Shown: piece after piece, positions 27,970-36,526 of the stretch
How the letters are laid out: every line of letters begins with the position of its first letter
How positions within the stretch are numbered: position 1 is the first letter of the stretch
Sequence record: LR694611
Origin: Escherichia phage rV5_ev158
Strand: one strand, 5' to 3'
Length of the DNA stretch: 64,000 bases
Program-made: the position numbers and the translations under genes
Notes under the pieces: model-generated
The model's input: only the letters and a program-made list of their open reading frames with translations
The model's database searches: none
What the model was told of the DNA's origin: nothing

Positions 27970-28275
27970 ATGGCTAAATCTAAAGTTGAACTGTTCACCT
28001 CTCTTCCTTCTGACACTGCAGAGCGTGATCGCCTTCGCAAAACAATCGAAGAACTGGTAGAACTCCAACTTCAGATTAAAGATCTGAAAGATGCCATTAA
28101 GGATATCATTCTCGTTGAGAAGCAGGATCACCTGTATTCTCCTAAATTCATCAAATCTCTGGTGGCTACCGAGTTCGATATTCGCTATGAGGCTGAAAAA
28201 CGTCGCGCTAAAATCGAAGAAGAGGTTGAGCACATGTCTGAGGCAGACATTCTGTTCAAACGCTCTGTAGAATAA
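27970..28275 (+). CDS. hypothetical coiled-coil protein
   Basis: 101 aa, charged heptad-like; followed by terminator. Confidence 0.5.
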   Translation: MAKSKVELFTSLPSDTAERDRLRKTIEELVELQLQIKDLKDAIKDIILVEKQDHLYSPKFIKSLVATEFDIRYEAEKRRAKIEEEVEHMSEADILFKRSVE

Positions 28276-28657: not shown

Positions 28658-28965
28658 GGTGGATTATGTCTACAAAGGCGGCTAAATACTCCTATATGCC
28701 ATCAACCTCTGCAGAGGTAGACTTTAGTTTCGATGTGTTTCCACTGTTTGAGGTGATTCTGGCATACCCAACAATACTATCTACTCCTGAATCACTTGTA
28801 CCTGTTAAGTTGCAGAACGCTATGCATTCTATGCACTACAACAACAAATGTAGGCACAGATGGTGTCAGGACGAGGAAAAAGATTTGGATAGTTTGAGGG
28901 ATTTTGACAGTCACCTTTTGACACCTTTCAGCTACTCCAACCTTGATAAGCCCTCATGGGTATAG
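28654..28965 (+). CDS. hypothetical protein
   Basis: 103 aa. Confidence 0.4.
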   Translation: MRWIMSTKAAKYSYMPSTSAEVDFSFDVFPLFEVILAYPTILSTPESLVPVKLQNAMHSMHYNNKCRHRWCQDEEKDLDSLRDFDSHLLTPFSYSNLDKPSWV

Positions 28966-29206: not shown

Positions 29207-29239
29207 TCCACACACAGTTTGGAGAATATGGAATACACA

Positions 29240-29329
29240 ATGAGAACATTGTCTGAAGTTTTAGTGGTGATCCTGATGATCATTACTTCCATAGCGGCTG
29301 TTGCCGGAATACTCACGGGTGGAACATGA
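29240..29329 (+). CDS. small hydrophobic peptide, 29 aa
   Basis: Downstream of promoter; single TM-like VLVVILMIITSIAAVAGIL; stop overlaps next start (ATGA). Confidence 0.3.
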   Translation: MRTLSEVLVVILMIITSIAAVAGILTGGT

Positions 29330-29538
29330 TCAACACACATGCATCTGAAGAGACATCCGAAGGAGTGACCATATGTCCCTTGGATGAGCCAGTTAAAGAG
29401 GAAAACTTAGATTCTGAGGACTCTTCATCTTCGTCCCAGACAGATCCTGAGGCTGATGACCTGACGTGGGAGGACATCGTAGATATCTGGTTCTCTATTA
29501 TGCCTGAGCACGAAGAGTTCAGAGGTGGTAGACTATGA
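29326..29538 (+). CDS. small highly acidic, Ser-rich protein
   Basis: 70 aa; DSEDSSSSSQTDPEADD. Confidence 0.4.
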   Translation: MINTHASEETSEGVTICPLDEPVKEENLDSEDSSSSSQTDPEADDLTWEDIVDIWFSIMPEHEEFRGGRL

Positions 29539-29659
29539 AGCACCGAGCCCACACAGGTTCCTCATGCTAAAGCATGGCCTGAAGAGGCAAACGTGTATAA
29601 TTCTTGTGCATTGGAACGTATAAAACCCTGTTCACACTCTCATTCCCAGAGGAGATTTT

Positions 29660-29875
29660 ATGAAGATAGAGATATTTGGTGGAGCTGACAACACTCGTGG
29701 CCTGATTTACCTTGAATTCGATGAATCATACCTGCCAGAGGTGTTAAATATAGACTCTGTTGCTGAGGCTTTGGGAGTAAACCCTAAAGAACTCCACTCT
29801 TGTGCTGAGATCGATGGTTGGGAAGAGACCATGAACATTGATTTCAGTGAAGTAGAGGATGAACCGCTAGACTGA
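29660..29875 (+). CDS. small acidic protein (MKIE start)
   Basis: 71 aa; last plus-strand gene before the ORF-free zone. Confidence 0.45.
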   Translation: MKIEIFGGADNTRGLIYLEFDESYLPEVLNIDSVAEALGVNPKELHSCAEIDGWEETMNIDFSEVEDEPLD

Positions 29876-30004
29876 CACACAATCAGCTGCCCGGCTAAAG
29901 TGCTGGAAGCGCACCTATAACACATCTTTCAACTAAATTTCCTACCACCACAATCACTTACCTACCACACATGACTGTTTGCTTGTTTAGTGAGCAGTCA
30001 TGCC

Positions 30005-30033
30005 TTGACATTCTTGCCTATCCTGATAAAATT
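30005..30033 (+). promoter_or_regulatory. sigma70-like promoter TTGACA-16-TAAAAT reading into ORF-free DNA
   Basis: -35 at 30005-30010, -10 at 30027-30032; no ORF of 60 aa or more on either strand for about 2.2 kb downstream. Confidence 0.45.
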
Positions 30034-31382
30034 AAGTTCTTCTCTTTTCTTTTACCGAGTAATTCGGGTTTTCTGTTCTCTTCGGTTTGAAGGGGTATGG
30101 AGATACACCTGAGTGAACAGGGTGAACAACCGAACCATTGGCTATGGCATTAGCATGGCGAAGCGGACGGGTGACGAAAGAGGGGCCGGAGGACACCAGT
30201 CACTGCCATATGATATATGGGTGATAACCTGAAGAGTCTGAATAAGTGTTTAAGTACCAGTCAGAGGAAAAGGTGAATGGTAGCCGAAGGGGGATGGGGG
30301 GTTTCTTGTATCTTTAATTTGTATATTATGTATACACTTGTAAACCAATCTCATCTGAATCTGTTTACCACACAAAGCGGATAGAGACAAATATCACCTA
30401 TTAAACTTGAATTATTTATAGAAAATACCACAACACCACTTAAGTCTTTGATTTTACACACAAATCCTACAGATATTCAACCTCCATATTTAACATACTT
30501 GTAACATATTCCATACTCTACCTGTCTGATCAATTTCCCCAACTACATTCTCATATTTTCCCTGTCTGTACTACCCCTGCCCCGCCGGGAGTCCCGTCAT
30601 ATCTGGCTTTCCAGCAAATATCACACCCACAAATATCATTGCCTGAAGAGGGTTTCATCCCATAATACCTGCCTTACCTGAAGAGCGCTTCATACACCAC
30701 GTAAATTTTTTAATTGACCTCCCCCTGCCCCGCCGGAGAGGTTGGCTTTTCCCACACAGACCTGAAGAGTCAGCCAGAAATATCTGAACAGGCCCAATTC
30801 TACCACGATTTTGACCTGACCTACAGGGAGGCCCGAAGGGTCTAGCTTTCAGCTAGAGTCCTTGCAGGACCTACAGGAGCGCTGCCAGGCGGACGGAATG
30901 GGAATACTTCTCATTCTTATAACAATTCTCAAATATCGAGACAGTGAGAGAAATTAATAGGCCAGGCCGTTCACACAGTGGCACAACATTTGCAACCTAT
31001 TTTGGGTGGATGAATGAGAATACCTATCATTGTGAGAACTGTTATCATTACGGGCAATTTAACATAATACCCATTATGCGCACCACCGGCGATACATACA
31101 GGGATTGATAACATGGGTTACTGTTTACGCACATAACAATTATATTTCTTACTATTTGTGTGGGATATAGTTAGCAGCCGATAGATTAGATATTAACCTG
31201 CAGACTTCTGACCGTCCAGACGTCTAAACGCCCACACACCAAGGATTATACATACACTCCTGAATGTAAACAGGGCCGCAAAAATGCTACCATACAAGCT
31301 TGTAAATTTTTCATGCAGCACTTGACAAAGAGGAGAAAAACTTGTCTGACATAATGTGACCTAACTGACACAACATGACACT

Positions 31383-31471
31383 TTTACACACCTATTAGTT
31401 TACACACTGGATTGTTTACATTCCTGATTGTTCACATGCTAACCATTTACATGATTGACTGTTTACACACC
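31383..31471. repeat. iteron-like array, six copies of (T/A)GTT(T/C)ACA spaced 14-16 bp
   Basis: TTTTACACACC, AGTTTACACAC, TGTTTACATTC, TGTTCACATGC, CATTTACATGA, TGTTTACACACC; further TGTTTAC copies near 31121, 31265 (inverted), 31871, 31924, 31973. Confidence 0.6.
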
Positions 31472-31479
31472 GATAATCA

Positions 31480-31773
31480 GCCATGCCATTCGTTTGCATG
31501 AAAACAATTAACAAGATAACAATCGACAAGTTAATAATCTTTCGCTGGCTATGCCAGGTGACTAGGTCACCCCTTCGGGCGTTCCTATGACATAATATAA
31601 AAGCAGGGCAACTATTAGCAGATCTATAGTTGCCTTGCTTGTTATGTCATGATTAACTAAATACAAGGCAACTATGATCTGATTAATAGTTTGCAGACAA
31701 ACTATCACGGGGGTGATGGTTACTGCTTTTATATTATGTCGCGACTCCGTCGCGCCATGCCATTCGTTTGCAT
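31480..31773. repeat. 20 bp perfect direct repeats flanking a palindrome-rich 274 bp module
   Basis: GCCATGCCATTCGTTTGCAT at 31480-31499 and 31754-31773; between them a ~66 bp imperfect palindrome (31586-31652, centre AGATCT), GCAACTAT/ATAGTTGC inverted repeats and hairpin CGCGACTCCGTCGCG. Confidence 0.6.
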
Positions 31774-32380
31774 AGTTGCCTTATTGTTACGAATAAAACA
31801 ATTGCATTGTTAATGATTTCTTATCTTTCTCTTAGTCATCTAATGATTCCAGTCAGTATAGTAATGTACAGTAAACATTAGACGACTAAAGATTTCTCTG
31901 TTTATGATAACTCATCTTGATAATTTCGGACTGTTTACGAAAAATGTTGACACCTGAGCTGATTTATGTTATGCAGTTTACACGAATAATTATTTTATGC
32001 AGGTATTGACTATTCCGTTATTCTGTGGTTGGAATAAATACTTTGCAGGCTATAGAATGGCGTGCGTACGTGAATTCTGAGATCTGGCGGCTATAGTTAT
32101 ACTCGATTTTTCGCGTAGAACACGCTTTCGATGCTGTGTAAGTGTATGACTTATAAAGATTTTTAGTTGTTGACAAGATATTGGAGATGTGCATCAGGTT
32201 AAAATTTGTGCAATAGCGGCATTACGTGCACTTTTGGGAGAGAAAACGGGTAAAAATGGACTTGCTACCACACAATGAAAAATTATGCAATAGTTATTTT
32301 CCATGTATATTTGTACAGTATGTGGGATTGATGGCTAGTCAATTATTCCACTTGCCAGGTAGGGCCGTTTATGGTAGGAG

Positions 32381-32404
32381 AAGAGCAGACAAAAAGAAAG
32401 GGGC
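32381..32404 (-). terminator. Rho-independent terminator for the minus-strand block
   Basis: AGGGGCCTAAGCCCCT hairpin; on the minus strand it is followed by a T-run (plus-strand AAAAAGAAA upstream). Confidence 0.6.
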
Positions 32405-32433
32405 CTAAGCCCCTTGATAATTCAGTTAAAAAA

Positions 32434-32853
32434 TTATAATGATTCGTATATTTCAAAAATCCGATTTGCCAGGTCGTTACGGTAGCGGAATTTTTCCTCA
32501 CGTTTGATCATAAGATCTTTATAGCCGTACTCTTTAAGCACTTCATTAACTTTATGGCGGCATACTTTCATATTATCCTGCGCGTCACCAATAAATCTGT
32601 TGCTATGGTGCATGGCTTTAATTTCTTCTTCCAGGACCAGGGCAACTATGCGGACCGGATCAAGCTGATAGGCGGTAACATCCATGCGGCATTGTAAACG
32701 GCTTTTTACGTCTGCCACCGGATATACTGCAACCTCTTCCCCGTCAACATTGATAATAATTAGTTTACCATCGATTTCGAATCCTTTCGCCGCCGGACCG
32801 TGACAAAAAGCGTTATCAAAGCTATATGCCGGATTATTAGATTTAATGTTCAT
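32434..32853 (-). CDS. hypothetical protein
   Basis: 139 aa; last gene of the minus-strand block. Confidence 0.5.
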   Translation of the reverse strand: MNIKSNNPAYSFDNAFCHGPAAKGFEIDGKLIIINVDGEEVAVYPVADVKSRLQCRMDVTAYQLDPVRIVALVLEEEIKAMHHSNRFIGDAQDNMKVCRHKVNEVLKEYGYKDLMIKREEKFRYRNDLANRIFEIYESL

Positions 32854-32997
32854 GGTGTTTTTACCTCTTAGTTAATTTTCTTACAACTTCCCTTCAAAAA
32901 AGAATATAGCAAAACTGCCGATCCCTGTCAACCAGGGATAGCATAATTTTTATGTGATCAAGGGGCTTTATTGCCCCTGACCATGTAACTTGTTGTA

Positions 32998-33261
32998 TTA
33001 TTTGTTGCTCATCCAGTTTTCCCAAGCTGCCTGATAATCTGCCTCACTACGGCGGATCTCTTCTTGCTCTTCAAGGCGGATCTCTTCTTCCAGGTACCCC
33101 AAGATGTCAGCCTTTTTAGTCTGGCGTAGCATCCAGTCATCTTTTTTGCGAGTGAAGATCTTATAAGCTTTCTCGCAAACCTCTTTTTTGCTACCTTTCT
33201 GGACTTCAAGAACACGATAAGCCATATATTGAACTAATTTGAGCTGATCAAGACGTTTCAT
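32998..33261 (-). CDS. hypothetical protein
   Basis: 87 aa, charged. Confidence 0.45.
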   Translation of the reverse strand: MKRLDQLKLVQYMAYRVLEVQKGSKKEVCEKAYKIFTRKKDDWMLRQTKKADILGYLEEEIRLEEQEEIRRSEADYQAAWENWMSNK

Positions 33262-33321
33262 GATGTTTACCTCTTTGTGCGGTTCTGATTAGTGGGCCTT
33301 TTGGCCCGTGTCATTATCTTA

Positions 33322-33594
33322 TTACTTATGGCGGCAGAATTCAAGCGTTTTTAATTGATAATCTTCCTCAGCCTGGAGTACAACCGCCTCGATCATTTCG
33401 TTGGCATTGTTGAAGCCATACCCTTTAGCGAACTCGTCCGCACCACCTTCGTGATCATGTTCTGCGTTCATCGCTTCCACAAAATGGAATTCCAAATTGT
33501 TGAGGTAGGGGCTTGATGTGCCGTCTTCTTTTTCGATGAGATCCCAAATAGCATTAAAACGTGATTCGACTTCTTGATTAATCCAGCTTGACAT
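33322..33594 (-). CDS. hypothetical protein
   Basis: 90 aa; AGAGGAAAA upstream of ATG; TTGACA promoter-like sequence in the upstream intergenic region. Confidence 0.45.
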   Translation of the reverse strand: MSSWINQEVESRFNAIWDLIEKEDGTSSPYLNNLEFHFVEAMNAEHDHEGGADEFAKGYGFNNANEMIEAVVLQAEEDYQLKTLEFCRHK

Positions 33595-33812
33595 AGTGTT
33601 TTCCTCTCTTCTGGTTGTTGTGTGGGCACCTTTGCCCCTTCAAGATAAATGTTACCCCACCCCCTGGCAGATGTCAACGGTTTTTATAGTTCTTATATGA
33701 CAGGCAGGCCTGGTGATTGTCTCCCCCTGTTCCCAAGTGCCGCCCGTTTAATAAGAATAGCAAAAGGGGCCGAACAAGTCAACCCCAAAATCAGTACCAA
33801 AACACTTTTTAT

Positions 33813-34124
33813 TTATACGGTCCGGTCATTGGCCTTTGTCCAGGACCTGGCGATCCGTTTCCCAGTCACCTGGAACGGAGACTGCATTGTGTGTAATGAA
33901 TCCAGCGTAAGGGAGGACCGTTTACGGCGTATCTTCAGGATCGCCAATGTATTGTCCATCTCACGGCCAGGTCCTGGGCGGTATGGTGTGCCTCCAGCGT
34001 TAAGGTTGATGATCTCATGTATTGAGATCCGGCGTTGTTTTGCTTCCGCATCTTTGAAGATAGCCAGTGGAGGCGCTATGCGTTGCCGATACCAATCTAA
34101 AACGGTTGGCGTAATAGCGATCAT
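33813..34124 (-). CDS. hypothetical protein
   Basis: 103 aa; AGGGGGT 5 nt upstream of ATG; start overlaps upstream stop (ATGA). Confidence 0.45.
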   Translation of the reverse strand: MIAITPTVLDWYRQRIAPPLAIFKDAEAKQRRISIHEIINLNAGGTPYRPGPGREMDNTLAILKIRRKRSSLTLDSLHTMQSPFQVTGKRIARSWTKANDRTV

Positions 34125-34312
34125 ATTTTACCCCCTATGTAGTCCGGTCGGTTTTTCTCTGTCATGCGTTTTAGCAATTCTTGAATAATCCCTATTGCGG
34201 TTAATGTCTCATCTTCACGCTTTGAGTCAACATACCCGGGATCGTTTATAACTTTTGTCTGATTATGATATCTCAATACCGCCAACACTTTTACAGCTTC
34301 ATCAGTGGTCAT
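34121..34312 (-). CDS. hypothetical protein
   Basis: 63 aa. Confidence 0.4.
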   Translation of the reverse strand: MTTDEAVKVLAVLRYHNQTKVINDPGYVDSKREDETLTAIGIIQELLKRMTEKNRPDYIGGKI

Positions 34313-34457
34313 TATCGCACCTAAAACAATGAGTTAATATATAACACCAGATCGCTGACCACTAGAACAACACTGATCAGCACATACCTAACCATAAGGG
34401 TAAAGAGCGCCAATATTGACACCACAATCCCCAAGGTGGTGATTATCTTTTTCATGG

Positions 34458-34742
34458 TTAACGGTTCACGTAAGCTTTACCGTTTACCGTCATCGGCAAA
34501 TCTTCCAGGTCTGGATCTTCCTTAAGGTCACGAGCAAGCTCACCGCACCGGATACCCTCGAATCCGTAGTACTCTGTTGTACCGTCATTAAAAGTTTTAG
34601 TGGCAAGGCATAAGCGATAAGTAACCCCGATTCGATTGACGGCATGAATATCCGTTAGATTAACCTCTTTTGCCAGCTCATTAGCCATTGCAGGCGCATT
34701 AAGTCCAACAACCAGGGTAACCGCTGCGATCATCTTTTTCAT
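34458..34742 (-). CDS. secreted small protein (signal peptide)
   Basis: N-terminal MKKMIAAVTLVVGLNAPAMA signal-peptide-like; AAGAGGA upstream. Confidence 0.5.
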   Translation of the reverse strand: MKKMIAAVTLVVGLNAPAMANELAKEVNLTDIHAVNRIGVTYRLCLATKTFNDGTTEYYGFEGIRCGELARDLKEDPDLEDLPMTVNGKAYVNR

Positions 34743-34833
34743 TGTGTCTATCCTCTTTCTGCTACGTTTAAGGCGGCGGTAACCGCCTGTTTATGCTTTG
34801 TTGGTTAATTTTCAGGTATCTGTATAAATTAAA

Positions 34834-35049
34834 CTATGCTGTACGCTCAACTATAACAACGGTTTGGGGGATCTCCCCTTCCACCACTAGTAAGGCCTTT
34901 TTCTGCGTGATAGATATCTTTACCCGTTGCAGCGTGGCGGTGAAGTCTTTCATTTCGTCACGCGGTGTTTTAGTGCAGTACCAGATCTCAGGCTTGCCGA
35001 TCTGTAAGTTGCGTAAAAATTCTGTTTTGCCTGTTTTGTTAGTGATCAT
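34834..35049 (-). CDS. hypothetical protein
   Basis: 71 aa. Confidence 0.4.
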   Translation of the reverse strand: MITNKTGKTEFLRNLQIGKPEIWYCTKTPRDEMKDFTATLQRVKISITQKKALLVVEGEIPQTVVIVERTA

Positions 35050-35233
35050 TTGTCAACCTCACCCGATACCGTTGGAAGACAAGATCACATTAGCCATGGT
35101 TGCAATCAGGCCAATACCCAGGGCAATAACCGGGATCACAGCATCAATTAATTTTTGTTTCATGGTGTTTATTCTCTTCTGTTAGTAACCTTATTCATAG
35201 GGCCGCTGCCACGGCCCCAGGGTAAGGCGGCTA

Positions 35234-35479
35234 TTAGTGTTTCATTCCAACCATAGCGGCGCGGATCGCCGTAGTGCTGTACTTGAAGCCGTCCGGGGTC
35301 TTATCTTGTCCGGTTAGCTCCAGAAAAAGCATCATATCCCGCGCCGCATCATTACGATTAGCATTAGCGTTAATAAAGCCTTGGGCCAACCGGTACAATG
35401 ACTCATCGTTATTAATCCAAAGGCTTACATTCCAATGAGTTTTGTTTTTGTAACCGTTATAACCTTTATTGCTTTTCAT
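35234..35479 (-). CDS. hypothetical protein
   Basis: 81 aa. Confidence 0.45.
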   Translation of the reverse strand: MKSNKGYNGYKNKTHWNVSLWINNDESLYRLAQGFINANANRNDAARDMMLFLELTGQDKTPDGFKYSTTAIRAAMVGMKH

Positions 35480-35570
35480 GGTGTTTACCTCTTCTTTGTT
35501 CCGGGTGGCGGATCATTCTACCACCTTATGTATTATGCTTTGTTAGATGGTTGTTTGTTGTCAAACTATT

Positions 35571-35792
35571 TTAACGATAATCATCGTACGCTTTATTAAC
35601 CTGGCGAATATAACATTCAAAAGCTAGATCAATAGATTCATATTCACGGATATACTCACCATAGGAAACCACATACATTTCTATAGCTTCCTCATATGCG
35701 AGGAGAATAGAATCTAAGCCTACGATCTCGGTCTTTGCAATAATAGCCATGATTTTTATCCTCTTTGTGGTTGGTGGGGCTTGTTGCTCCAT
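35571..35792 (-). CDS. hypothetical protein
   Basis: 73 aa. Confidence 0.4.
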   Translation of the reverse strand: MEQQAPPTTKRIKIMAIIAKTEIVGLDSILLAYEEAIEMYVVSYGEYIREYESIDLAFECYIRQVNKAYDDYR

Positions 35793-35825
35793 TTTATTTA
35801 TATATTACAGTTTTATATGGTCATG

Positions 35826-36059
35826 TCAACTATTTTCAAAAAATTTTTCTGCTGTGATATTCTTTCCGGTAGGGTTCGCTACTTTCAAAATTCTATCATG
35901 CACCGGACGCCCGAAAGAATAAGATCCGTATACAGTAAACCAATAATCACCGTCAGGCTGTACTATTACCGCCGCATAGGGTACGCCTTTTTCGTTTTTG
36001 CTGACAAAATAGATCACATTGCCATTAATAGCCTCAGTGCGTTTAATTTGTTCCATCAT
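35826..36059 (-). CDS. hypothetical protein
   Basis: 77 aa. Confidence 0.45.
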   Translation of the reverse strand: MMEQIKRTEAINGNVIYFVSKNEKGVPYAAVIVQPDGDYWFTVYGSYSFGRPVHDRILKVANPTGKNITAEKFFENS

Positions 36060-36114
36060 GATGATTTACCTCTCTTTATTTTCATAATTGGGGGCCTTTT
36101 CGGCCCCGCCAGGT

Positions 36115-36399
36115 TTATTTATTGATAGCGTGCAGCGGGAAAGCTACGCCAGGTTGATAAATAACCTTTACAACCTCATCAGGACAAAAGAAGTTGCAGA
36201 ACTCACCGCAATAGGCCTCATCCTCTTTCAACTCTTCATCAACATACTCAAAAAAGTAGTCGATGCTTGGATAATCCTGGCCGGGATTATAGTCAACCAT
36301 CGTTAATAATAACTCTTGATCATTCCGTAGGATGTGCATACCCGCTTTTAAGTATTTTGCTTCCATTTCTACTACATCGCCAGCGGTAACAATAGCCAT
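36115..36399 (-). CDS. hypothetical protein
   Basis: 94 aa. Confidence 0.45.
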   Translation of the reverse strand: MAIVTAGDVVEMEAKYLKAGMHILRNDQELLLTMVDYNPGQDYPSIDYFFEYVDEELKEDEAYCGEFCNFFCPDEVVKVIYQPGVAFPLHAINK

Positions 36400-36526
36400 G
36401 ATTTTAACTCCTATCTATCTGGTCAACGATTGGGGGCCTCCCCCTCGACAACTCTTATTATCCATATTGTCGGGAATGATGCAAGTACTTCTTTAAAAAT
36501 TTTTTAAGCGCCCCGTATGCCGTTGT

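Follow-up and report, generated by a model that had tools for sequence, protein, structure and literature searches.

A conserved candidate non-coding RNA downstream of a sigma70 promoter near the genome end of Vequintavirus

Why does a phage keep a near-consensus promoter that points into DNA without genes? Phages of the genus Vequintavirus contain a 2.5-kb gap that has been drawn as a "non-coding" box, without explanation, since the 2013 genome paper. It is the only large intergenic region free of insertions in a saturated transposon screen, for which the 2025 report of the screen proposed no function. We analyzed this gap within a 64,000-nucleotide stretch (the window) of the Vequintavirus Escherichia phage rV5_ev158, sequence record LR694611. 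A preliminary description, made from the sequence, had noticed a promoter firing into ORF-free, purine-rich DNA and had proposed a non-coding RNA as its product. The matter is also practical: vequintaviruses are among the commonest coliphage isolates and find use in therapy cocktails and engineering, several annotation pipelines fill the region with spurious ORFs, and it matters to genome design and annotation where the ends and the cis-essential elements lie and whether there is an essential RNA. The features discussed below are as follows, in window coordinates.

29970-30002, + strand: perfect inverted repeat CATGACTG...CAGTCATG, which can be extended to a hairpin of 14 bp directly beside the -35 hexamer
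30005-30032, + strand: sigma70 promoter with extended -10 (TTGACA, 16-nt spacer, TGnTAAAAT)
30036-30053, + strand: predicted transcription start zone (start at about 30036-30040, placed from the -10) and polypyrimidine 5' tract UUCUUCUCUUUUCUUUU
30051-30127, + strand: predicted 5' domain, a long imperfect hairpin with 30 pairs, of which 8 are G·U (-29.1 kcal/mol, z = -4.34)
30130-30171, + strand: predicted middle hairpin (-14.3 kcal/mol, z = -2.25)
30190-30286, + strand: predicted 3' domain (-24 kcal/mol, z = -1.88), with the hairpin CCAUAU-GAU-AUAUGG at 30206-30220
30289-30307, + strand: G-run (GGGGGATGGGGGG at 30289-30301), then TTTCTT (TTTCTTGTATCTTTAATTT), predicted 3' end of the conserved unit
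30302-30500, no strand assigned: AT-rich DNA directly 3' of the G-run, candidate unwinding element
30350-30800, + strand: C-rich, G-poor tract with the composition, as RNA, of a Rho-utilization site; contains CCTGAAGAG three times and CCCTGCCCCGCCGG twice
30888-31346, no strand assigned: 459-bp direct terminal repeat, the physical genome ends, placed from the ends of GenBank records

The good promoter that had been reported at 30005, TTGACA-16-TAAAAT, is indeed present. Its -35 hexamer occupies 30005-30010 and its -10 hexamer 30027-30032, and the TG at 30024-30025 adds an extended -10 to a score of 11/12. Sites scoring at least 11/12 number 18 in the 64-kb window, against 1.36 expected from dinucleotide shuffles, and six of them carry the TG, against 0.13 expected. 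Their orientation follows that of the genes (9/9 on the + strand in the + gene block, 9/9 on the - strand in the - gene block). Judged by sequence, the near-consensus sigma70 sites of this genome are overwhelmingly likely to be real, and that at 30005-30032 is the sole one of the 18 with no ORF downstream. Both hexamers and the TG are unchanged across 21 genomes. In lineage L021, the spacer has undergone six substitutions and a 2-nt insertion (16 to 18 nt) with hexamers and TG intact; in the other lineages, changes are confined to the spacer or to the bases just 5' of the -35. The two hexamers, a spacer of 16 to 18 nt, the TGn, and the conservation of hexamers over spacer are the marks of the extended -10 class of sigma70 promoters, and sequence statistics and evolution together argue strongly that the promoter at 30005-30032 is real.

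The inverted repeat that abuts the -35 is unique in the window, where none is expected. Its RNA fold reaches -19.1 kcal/mol (z = -5.5), a stability equaled by 0 of 200 shuffles. Across the 21 genomes it hardly varies: L021 has a single substitution, and four genomes have G30002C. This element may serve as an operator or may form a 3' hairpin on transcripts that read through from the upstream genes.

The sequence into which the promoter points is free of ORFs, as had been stated: none of at least 60 aa lies in 29876-32433, where we found only mechanical ORFs of 18 to 54 aa, and most depositors and curated records annotate nothing there. Could the segment still encode one or more very small proteins, for instance, from a 39-aa GTG ORF (30113-30232) or an 18-aa ATG ORF (30097-30153)? 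Several small ORFs are intact in 17 to 20 of 20 genomes, a GGAG lies 10 nt 5' of the GTG at 30113, and Pharokka-style annotations of MiataMamis, NHEP1, and Mangalyan call CDSs in the segment. However, intactness is to be expected by default, since the sequences are 98 to 100% identical. The 13 variable sites in 30113-30232 are distributed 6/3/4 over the codon positions, without a third-position excess; G30140A introduces a stop into the 18-aa ORF of three genomes and T30211G into the 39-aa ORF of one, while ORFs spanning the G-run are frameshifted in 18 to 19 of 20 genomes. The small ORFs match no PHROG family, and most curated records leave the segment blank. We consider a coding role extremely unlikely.

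Four compositional extremes lie side by side downstream of the promoter: the purine maximum, the only tandem G-run, the lowest GC content, and the most negative GC skew. The predicted 5' end is pyrimidine rich (74% over 30036-30089), and the L021 sequence, divergent up to 30038, is identical to the others from 30039 on. The G+A richness given in the preliminary description is confirmed, 30101-30300 being the most purine-rich of 1,276 200-nt windows (66%); over 30090-30303, G amounts to 35.5% and A to 30.8%. The G-run followed by T-rich sequence, placed there near 30290-30310, is likewise found; it is the only tandem run of G4 or longer in the 64 kb and has the highest G4Hunter score (1.84). 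The exact form seen here, G5ATG6, is rare: only this genome and rV5_ev168 carry the T at 30295, and the remaining 19 have G5AG6 or one G fewer. G5AG6 followed by TTTCTT occurs in 15 of 20 full-length genomes, and the rest vary in run length. The AT-rich DNA that follows has a GC content of 0.29, the lowest of the 1,276 windows, and the tract at 30350-30800 (31% C, 13% G) includes the three most negative GC skews (-0.52 to -0.55).

Nowhere in the 2.5-kb gene-free gap is conservation higher than in the ~265 nt that follow the promoter. Variable columns account for 6.1% of 30040-30303, versus 21.8% and 13.6% of the flanking CDSs, 43% of 30304-30887, and 21% of the terminal repeat. For the island 29966-30303 (6.5% variable), Fisher tests gave P values of 3e-7 and 0.002 against the two CDSs, 4e-36 against 30304-30887, and 2e-9 against the repeat. 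Conservation drops from 0.99 to 0.83 at 30300, and this sharp limit at about 30303 coincides with the G-run and T-tract. Constraint at the RNA level on 30040-30303 is moderately supported.

The 5' hairpin was equaled in stability by 0 of 200 shuffles, and its reverse complement folds differently, at -16.5 kcal/mol; because 8 of its 30 pairs are G·U, this 77-nt hairpin is specific to the + strand RNA. Folding energy beyond that of shuffles on one strand, the generic mark of a structured RNA, is thus seen for the 5' hairpin, whereas the full-length fold does not differ significantly from shuffles in stability (z = -1.47). In the consensus fold, the 5' polypyrimidine tract pairs with the 3' G-run. 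Two substitution hot spots occur: that at 30135-30140 falls in the unpaired or bulged part of the middle hairpin, and that at 30211-30215 mainly in the loop of the 30206-30220 hairpin, where GAU becomes AGU or GGU and where the closing U-A pair is U·G in lineage L013 and broken in L010. Compensatory changes were seen in 0 of 87 predicted pairs, a count without power, since the sequences are 98% identical.

Such conservation might also reflect an element acting as DNA, with dense binding sites for an initiator, the terminase small subunit, or an end-binding protein, and with the promoter secondary or a regulatory target. The palindrome abutting the -35 is nearly invariant, CCTGAAGAG recurs in the island and downstream of it, and the insertion intolerance of the whole gap, described below, suggests extended cis-acting DNA. 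Nevertheless, 30040-30303 has no internal repeats or iterons apart from one copy of CCTGAAGAG inside the 3' domain (30228-30236), and the limits of conservation match the promoter and the G-run/T-tract, not a repeat array. Moreover, the significant hairpin relies on G·U pairs and is hence RNA specific. We judge a DNA-level element improbable. The earlier proposal of a real promoter and a non-coding RNA is supported by the comparison of genomes and by the 264 conserved nucleotides, which have no coding signature and include a strand-specific hairpin. The promoter very probably yields a ~265-nt RNA, for which "candidate" is the right word.

This candidate RNA appears to be confined to the genus. 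As previously remarked from inspection by eye, it resembles no known RNA family: an Rfam scan of the whole 64-kb window at gathering thresholds gave no matches, and a permissive scan of 29800-32500 gave chance-level matches only (E of at least 4.6), none of them inside 30005-30300. A tRNA/tmRNA search returned nothing relevant. In a blastn search of phages set for distant matches, only Vequintavirus matched; the non-coding gaps of phAPEC8 and A7_1 gave no match by blastn or nhmmer, nor did an nhmmer profile of the transcript find one in the Phapecoctavirus, A7_1, Mydovirus, Seunavirus, and Certrevirus loci. A pattern scan of IMG/VR yielded one viral and five metagenome loci, all from the same genus as the window. 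Synteny of the 71-aa left neighbor is also confined to the genus, and synteny followed through the DsbA-like regulator leads, in other genera, to mid-operon positions with no gap. A similar architecture was sought in the convergent gap of A7_1 and not found, sites there scoring at most 10/12 and lacking the TG. A host-derived origin or host-gene match was rejected, since blastn matched none of 5,426 E. coli genomes; the single plasmid match is a mislabeled phage genome. We found no Vequintavirus transcriptome in the literature searched.

Where would the transcript end? No intrinsic terminator was detected at 30280-30310, the sole flagged site being a weak 5-bp stem at 30055-30067, and the GC-rich terminator hairpin with U-tail that typifies Hfq-dependent sRNAs is absent from 30280-30310. 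By the preliminary description, its proposal would fall if, among other things, the transcript proved to be the leader of a gene far downstream. Such a leader is unlikely, because the rest of the gap contains no + strand gene and the following gene block lies on the - strand.

The other clue to function is the position of the locus. Five sequence records start or end exactly at 31346, those of Gotham and bov10K2 start at 30888, and the Gotham annotation gives identical 459-bp repeats at both ends. With the repeat so placed, the promoter is 883 bp upstream of it and faces outward in its direction, with no ORF of at least 60 aa between. The record ends show that the promoter lies close to the genome end. 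Published PhageTerm analyses describe these genomes as circularly permuted, in conflict with fixed ends. In the left-end arm, a second conserved island, rich in inverted repeats, is located at 31600-31850.

A 2025 preprint reports a saturated transposon screen, HIDEN-SEQ, of phage Bas54 with no insertions in the orthologous intergenic region (Bas54 92786-95297), a statement that covers the whole gap of ~2 to 2.5 kb and is not resolved to the RNA segment. Of the 224 TA sites in the region, 14 fall within the RNA and 4 in the promoter region. In bas54_0135, which adjoins the promoter, 11 of 11 TA sites were hit. The requirement for the gap region rests on this one preprint, and the non-coding RNA is a concrete candidate to account for its unexplained insertion intolerance.

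One explanation for an outward promoter at this position is that transcription itself matters, as at T7 phiOR, the polymerase marking or opening the concatemer junction for the terminase as it moves through or pauses in the end region, with an incidental RNA. In T7, a pause of RNA polymerase at the concatemer junction initiates maturation (PMC3276506). The 883 bp without an ORF, the insertion-intolerant gap, and the three CCTGAAGAG and two CCCTGCCCCGCCGG copies and hairpins between promoter and repeat fit such a role. However, the act of transcription leaves unexplained the fact that the first 265 transcribed nt are the most conserved while the DNA nearer the repeat is 43% variable, and the Rho-prone C-rich tract before the repeat should stop the host polymerase. 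Furthermore, the T7 mechanism requires a phage polymerase able to bind terminase proteins; rV5 lacks an RNA polymerase of its own. We regard this role as unlikely. A role in transcription-driven DNA entry was rejected because the promoter faces toward, and not away from, the nearest end.

The explanation that we tentatively prefer is that 30005-30303 constitutes an independent Vequintavirus gene for a non-coding RNA that acts in cis through an R-loop or priming. Host RNA polymerase with sigma70 would initiate at about 30036-30040 and yield a ~265-nt transcript that begins with a pyrimidine-rich tract and a long hairpin rich in G·U pairs, continues with two lesser hairpin domains within an exceptionally purine-rich body, and closes with G5AG6 followed by UUUCUU. 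Use of the host polymerase throughout has been proposed for rV5 (PMC3606486). Transcripts reading through would meet the C-rich, G-poor tract, suited to Rho termination. The purine-rich transcript ending in the G-run may stay hybridized to its C/T-rich template as an R-loop and, adjoining the most AT-rich DNA, could open or prime the DNA for a T7-type replisome; the rV5 genome has genes for a family A DNA polymerase and a primase-helicase of the gp4 type (PMC3606486). Priming might serve as an origin or might copy the terminal repeat during concatemer processing. We only infer the R-loop or priming step. A promoter directed into a purine-rich non-template strand, with an AT-rich element directly downstream, is the arrangement expected of R-loop origins.

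A precedent is found in mitochondria, where CSB II, G5-6AG7-8 followed by a T-tract, terminates transcription and forms a priming R-loop (PMC5027508; PMC3488243). CSB II variants with 8 to 11 guanines cause virtually no extra termination with POLRMT, the mitochondrial polymerase (PMC5027508), and the 11 guanines of the phage run fall short of the 12 taken as the least for appreciable termination, a point against the preferred explanation. Two further observations count against the preferred explanation. Near 30300, the cumulative GC skew reaches a local maximum, as at a terminus, and not the minimum that an origin would show, a signal confounded by convergent transcription (PMC3606486). The uniform 99% conservation over 265 nt exceeds what a simple primer needs and would suit a folded, trans-acting RNA equally well. 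An origin based on DnaA boxes was rejected, no box with one mismatch or fewer being present in 29212-36458. As an origin candidate, the island at 31600-31850 is at least as good as 30005-30303.

A trans-acting structured RNA that binds or sequesters a host or phage protein, serves as a regulator or an anti-defense decoy, or forms part of an essential machine is a real, if somewhat doubtful, possibility. Conservation is high along the full length, predicted loops included, and stops sharply at the 3' boundary. The significant strand-specific 5' hairpin points in the same direction, as does the potential for the 5' CU tract to pair with the 3' G-run in a closing helix of the kind that many stable RNAs have. 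The pRNA of phi29 sets a precedent for an essential phage RNA beside a genome end: its 174 nt are encoded at nt 147-320, within an early region that is transcribed as far as the left end (PMC11476376). On the other hand, neither an Rfam family nor an Hfq-type terminator was found, blastn revealed no complementarity or similarity to E. coli genomes, and homologs are absent outside the genus, as is seldom the case for a core component of a machine. Phages can usually dispense with accessory RNAs, whereas the region in Bas54 tolerates no insertions. By hand count, 30090-30300 contains six GGA motifs, which by a rough estimate is not above what composition predicts, and a CsrB-like sponge was rejected on this count. 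By analogy with phi29 pRNA, and with unrelated sequence and fold, the RNA might be an essential trans-acting structural or catalytic part of the replication or packaging machinery; we consider this very unlikely.

The gap that was an unlabeled box now has an anatomy: 459-bp repeat ends, a right arm with the promoter and a candidate non-coding RNA of ~265 nt, an AT-rich and then a C-rich tract, and a left arm with the conserved island. How does this arrangement compare with known systems? Small RNAs such as T4 band C/D, lambda oop, and DicF are generally dispensable. The candidate resembles them in being short, non-coding, and, by prediction, sigma70 driven, and differs from them in that no intrinsic terminator, target, or family was found. 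The phi29 pRNA (120 to 174 nt, structured, and essential) is encoded beside the genome end (PMC11476376), as the candidate is near it. The latter has no Rfam match and differs in size and predicted fold, and the phage has a standard large terminase.

The phiOR promoter of T7 maps a few hundred base pairs before the right terminal repeat. The likeness lies in an outward promoter before the right repeat, with no ORF and with short repeats between. Here, the promoter is of the sigma70 type, the predicted transcript is conserved and structured, a Rho-prone tract precedes the repeat, and the phage is a 137-kb myovirus with a 459-bp repeat. In T7, transcription at the concatemer junction is coupled to DNA maturation (PMC3276506). 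phiOR is recognized by a phage-encoded RNA polymerase that couples to the terminase, unlike the sigma70-type promoter here. With the CSB II-type terminator, the locus shares two G-runs split by one base and followed by a T-tract, although its 11 guanines are too few for appreciable termination with POLRMT.

The origins of ColE1, T4, and T7 are primed by transcripts. Compared with R-loop-primed origins (ColE1 RNA II, the T7 primary and secondary origins, T4 ori(uvsY) and ori(34), and mitochondrial LSP-CSB II), the Vequintavirus locus differs in sequence, in its use of the host multisubunit polymerase, in having 11 guanines, in the conservation of the whole 265 nt, and in a GC skew that is not origin-like. 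It is like them in its strong, gene-less promoter, its purine-rich non-template strand, the AT-rich DNA downstream, the T7-type replisome, and a G-run with T-tract, which in the phage reads GAAGGGGGAGGGGGGTTT.

The window comes from a Vequintavirus. Over the query, it matches Escherichia phage rV5_ev168 at 100% identity; identity to more than 100 rV5-like genomes is 90-97%. The segment analyzed here, a sigma70-type promoter at 30005 followed by a purine-rich stretch to ~30303 on the + strand, occupies the left margin of a gene-free gap of 2.55 kb (29876-32433), between a + strand gene block whose last gene ends at 29875 and a - strand block whose final member ends at 32434. The rV5 genome paper drew this gap as a "non-coding" box and did not find the bidirectional terminators expected between rV5 genes 163 and 164 (PMC3606486). 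Because promoters were sought only upstream of genes in that work, the gap promoter was left unannotated (PMC3606486).

Features of the gap and its neighborhood, with the percentage of variable alignment columns where calculated
27970-28275, +: gene for a DsbA-like transcriptional regulator, 101 aa, conserved across Vequintavirinae genera
28666-28965, +: ORF, ortholog of bas54_0140
29660-29875: flanking CDS, 21.8%
29876-30887: right-end arm (fixed-end reading)
29966-30039: inverted repeat and promoter, 8.1%
29970-30002, +: 14-bp hairpin/palindrome abutting the -35, unique in the window, near-invariant, z = -5.5
30040-30303, +: predicted RNA, 6.1%
30304-30887: non-coding DNA directly downstream, 43%
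30571-30588 and 30719-30736: two copies of CT(A/C)CCCCTGCCCCGCCGG, C-rich tract
30888-31346: terminal repeat, 459 bp (fixed-end reading), 21%
31347-32433: left-end arm (fixed-end reading)
31347-31599: hypervariable indel-rich zone just inside the left-end repeat copy, 72%
31383-31467: four TGTTTACA-type units, spaced 16, 16 and 31 nt
31589-31850: second conserved island of the gap, in the left-end arm, 10%
32434-32853, -: 139-aa gene, common to Phapecoctavirus at ~88% amino-acid identity, 13.6%

The 30005 promoter is real, as two independent lines of evidence indicate. The elements reported in the preliminary description were confirmed (TTGACA at 30005-30010, a 16-nt spacer, TG at 30024-30025 and TAAAAT at 30027-30032), and near-consensus sites of this kind are strongly over-represented in the window, with 18 observed at 11/12 or better versus 1.36 expected, and 6 versus 0.13 when an extended -10 TG is required. 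Their strand agreement is complete (9/9 + sites in the + block, 9/9 - sites in the - block), the 30005 site being the last on the + strand and the only one without an ORF behind it. Second, its hexamers and TG are unchanged in 21 genomes. A metagenomic relative, L021, differs from the window by six spacer substitutions, a 2-nt insertion that lengthens the spacer from 16 to 18 nt, and an altered discriminator, yet its TTGACA, TG and TAAAAT are intact and full identity to the window resumes at 30039. Such a pattern, with hexamers kept and spacer rewritten, is what selection on promoter function would look like, and it supports a predicted transcription start near 30036-30040. The palindrome at 29970-30002 may act as this promoter's operator or as the 3'-end hairpin of the upstream operon, which has no canonical terminator.

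What follows the promoter is probably a true non-coding transcription unit of ~265 nt, driven by sigma70. In a 15-genome alignment, mean pairwise identity is 0.967-0.997 in seven consecutive 50-nt bins (29950-30299) and falls abruptly to 0.83 and 0.80 from 30300. Over the whole island (29966-30303), 22/338 columns vary, fewer than in CDS 29660-29875, CDS 32434-32853, the DNA at 30304-30887 and the repeat (Fisher p = 3e-7, 0.002, 4e-36 and 2e-9, respectively); the conserved unit therefore begins with the promoter and upstream palindrome and stops exactly at the G-run/T-tract. No relatives of the segment were found in other Vequintavirinae genera, Phapecoctavirus or the A7_1 clade, nor among 5,426 E. 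coli genomes, and the sole plasmid match was a mislabeled phage genome. Among matches to 29600-31600, 18-19 GenBank MG0656xx records named 'Campylobacter phage' (95-99% identical to rV5_ev158) and the 137,565-bp E. coli 'plasmid' CP057073.1 are Vequintavirus genomes, probably reflecting mislabeling or contamination.

Protein coding by the segment is unlikely. The segment was rightly described as ORF free, and the whole gap contains zero ORFs of at least 60 aa. Automated pipelines place 10-15 ORF calls (30-60 aa, both strands) across the gap in the related genomes MiataMamis, Mangalyan and NHEP1 (L006, L007 and L008); lacking conservation or homology support, these are probably spurious. That the segment encodes small proteins is scarcely credible: CDS calls here come from a few records from permissive pipelines, whereas curated records leave the region empty; the 13 variable sites of a 39-aa GTG ORF are spread 6/3/4 over codon positions; small ORFs gain stop codons in some lineages and match no PHROG family; and ORFs crossing the G-run are frameshifted in 18-19/20 genomes because run length varies.

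At the RNA level, the full-length fold is unexceptional (z = -1.47), but 30051-30127 forms a 30-pair hairpin (-29.1 kcal/mol, z = -4.34) that 0/200 shuffles equal. Since eight of its 30 pairs are G·U, this hairpin exists only in + strand RNA, the reverse complement adopting a different, weaker fold. Substitution hot-spots (30135-30140 and 30211-30215) fall mainly at predicted unpaired positions; of the changes, one preserves pairing as U·G and another abolishes a pair. At 98% identity the alignment lacks the power to reveal covariation, with compensatory changes at 0/87 predicted pairs. Hairpin and hot-spot placement together lend moderate support to RNA-level constraint on the segment. Two other explanations, that transcription as such matters rather than its product and that the island is a DNA-level binding array, both appear improbable.

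Composition also sets the segment apart. It is as purine rich as first described, 30101-30300 being the top 200-nt window (66% purine) of 1,276 in the 64 kb, and the reported G-run followed by T-rich sequence is present. This run (30289-30301) is the sole tandem G4+ run and the G4Hunter maximum of the window. The 200 nt past it have a GC content of 0.29, the minimum of all windows, and the following ~300 nt contain the three most negative GC-skew values, being C-rich and G-poor. In rV5_ev158 and rV5_ev168, the run is split by a private T insertion at 30295 (G5ATG6), a homopolymer length polymorphism or sequencing error; the remaining genomes show G5AG6 or differ from it in length (G4AG6, G5AG5). 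The CT(A/C)CCCCTGCCCCGCCGG copies take in the window's richest spot for C-runs (G4Hunter minimum at ~30710); should the transcript read through, they could base-pair with the G-run. CCTGAAGAG occurs seven times in the window versus 0.48 expected (+ strand, 13342, 29578, 30228, 30642, 30677 and 30761; - strand, 61386); five + strand copies cluster within 1.2 kb around the segment, one inside the predicted RNA, and two pairs extend to 12-20-nt repeats. Just as no known RNA family had been recognized by eye, an Rfam scan gave none, and no tRNAs were found.

In seven GenBank records, the breaks fall at exactly two positions. Five, from different laboratories and in both orientations (Aya, YN3, HdK5, Pr121LW and Gotham), start or end exactly at 31346 (…AAAACTTGTC|), and those of Gotham and bov10K2 begin exactly at 30888 (…GCGCTGCCA|GGCGGACGG…); Gotham is annotated with identical 459-bp repeat regions at both ends. 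Read most simply, these records would imply a linear genome whose ends are fixed and carry a 459-bp direct terminal repeat (30888-31346), in disagreement with literature descriptions of Vequintavirus genomes as "circularly permuted" or headful (PMC3606486 among the sources). Under the fixed-end reading, the promoter fires outward, with 883 bp separating it from the repeat and 1.34 kb from the right end. Some depositors annotate a tandem repeat in the 31347-31599 zone. The island at 31589-31850, with an 18-bp perfect inverted repeat (31589-31606/31723-31740) and about four CAAGGCAACTAT-type motif copies of alternating orientation, could serve as an origin, a packaging site or an array for protein binding.

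Phage Bas54 (MaxBurger) carries the orthologous gap, genes 0135 and 0134 being orthologs of the two flanking genes, and its island is 98.8% identical. In a saturated Himar1 transposon library, this gap, with 224 TA sites, tolerates no insertions (HIDEN-SEQ preprint); the statement covers the whole gap, and so shows a requirement for the gap without singling out the RNA. In rV5_ev158 itself, the predicted RNA contains 14 TA sites and the promoter region 4. The gene immediately upstream of the promoter, bas54_0135, received insertions at 11/11 TA sites, and its neighbors at 6/6, 9/9 and 11/13; 146/227 genes are dispensable (HIDEN-SEQ preprint). bas54_0140 is reported to be an anti-defense gene, needed to counter DS-28, a predicted system of E. 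coli CFE311, and the ortholog of the 139-aa gene scored 'Intermediate', with strong depletion in one host comparison (HIDEN-SEQ preprint). In Phapecoctavirus (phAPEC8-like, another subfamily), the 139-aa gene also precedes a gene-free gap, of 1.5 kb and without sequence similarity to that of rV5_ev158. Mydovirus, Seunavirus and Certrevirus have the DsbA-like regulator gene in the middle of an operon, ahead of replication genes; the placement of the gap next to this gene is therefore specific to Vequintavirus.

The non-coding box and the insertion intolerance of the gap are already published. The promoter, conserved putative transcript, predicted structure and position relative to the terminal repeat are unannotated in the inspected records, and we found none of them in the literature. 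The unit is a candidate with good support and brings an unanswered question within direct experimental reach; its mechanism is an unproven proposal.

We tentatively propose, as possible rather than probable, that the ~265-nt unit works in cis at the end of the genome, and we infer its mode of action: the transcript would act in the manner of a transcript-primed origin, where purine-rich transcript, G-run and AT-rich DNA are similarly arranged. A cis role is favored by the location near the genome end; by insertion intolerance, unusual for an accessory trans-acting RNA in a phage with so many dispensable genes; by the close grouping of the most purine-rich transcript with the sole tandem G-run and the most AT-rich DNA; and by the T7-type DNA polymerase and primase-helicase of the phage (PMC3606486). 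Against it, the GC skew is terminus-like rather than origin-like, albeit confounded by convergent transcription; the gap contains no DnaA boxes; uniform conservation over 265 nt is more than a simple primer needs; and the inverted-repeat-rich second island (31600-31850) offers another possible origin or packaging site. The main rival, a folded trans-acting RNA, is rather unlikely, and its boldest form, in which the RNA would be an essential part of a machine as phi29 pRNA is, would be highly improbable. The phi29 RNA is likewise encoded beside a genome end (PMC11476376).

For the proposed cis role, the phage G5AG6-TTT recalls mitochondrial CSB II (G5-6AG7-8 plus a T-tract; PMC5027508), where a hybrid RNA-DNA G-quadruplex ends transcription and stabilizes the priming R-loop (PMC5027508; PMC3488243). 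However, the phage run has 11 guanines, a length that gave the mitochondrial polymerase almost no extra termination (PMC5027508). T7 offers a positional precedent, transcription into the concatemer junction being coupled to maturation (PMC3276506). Although outside all known RNA families, the segment fits the promoter-driven non-coding transcripts tied to phage genome ends or origins.
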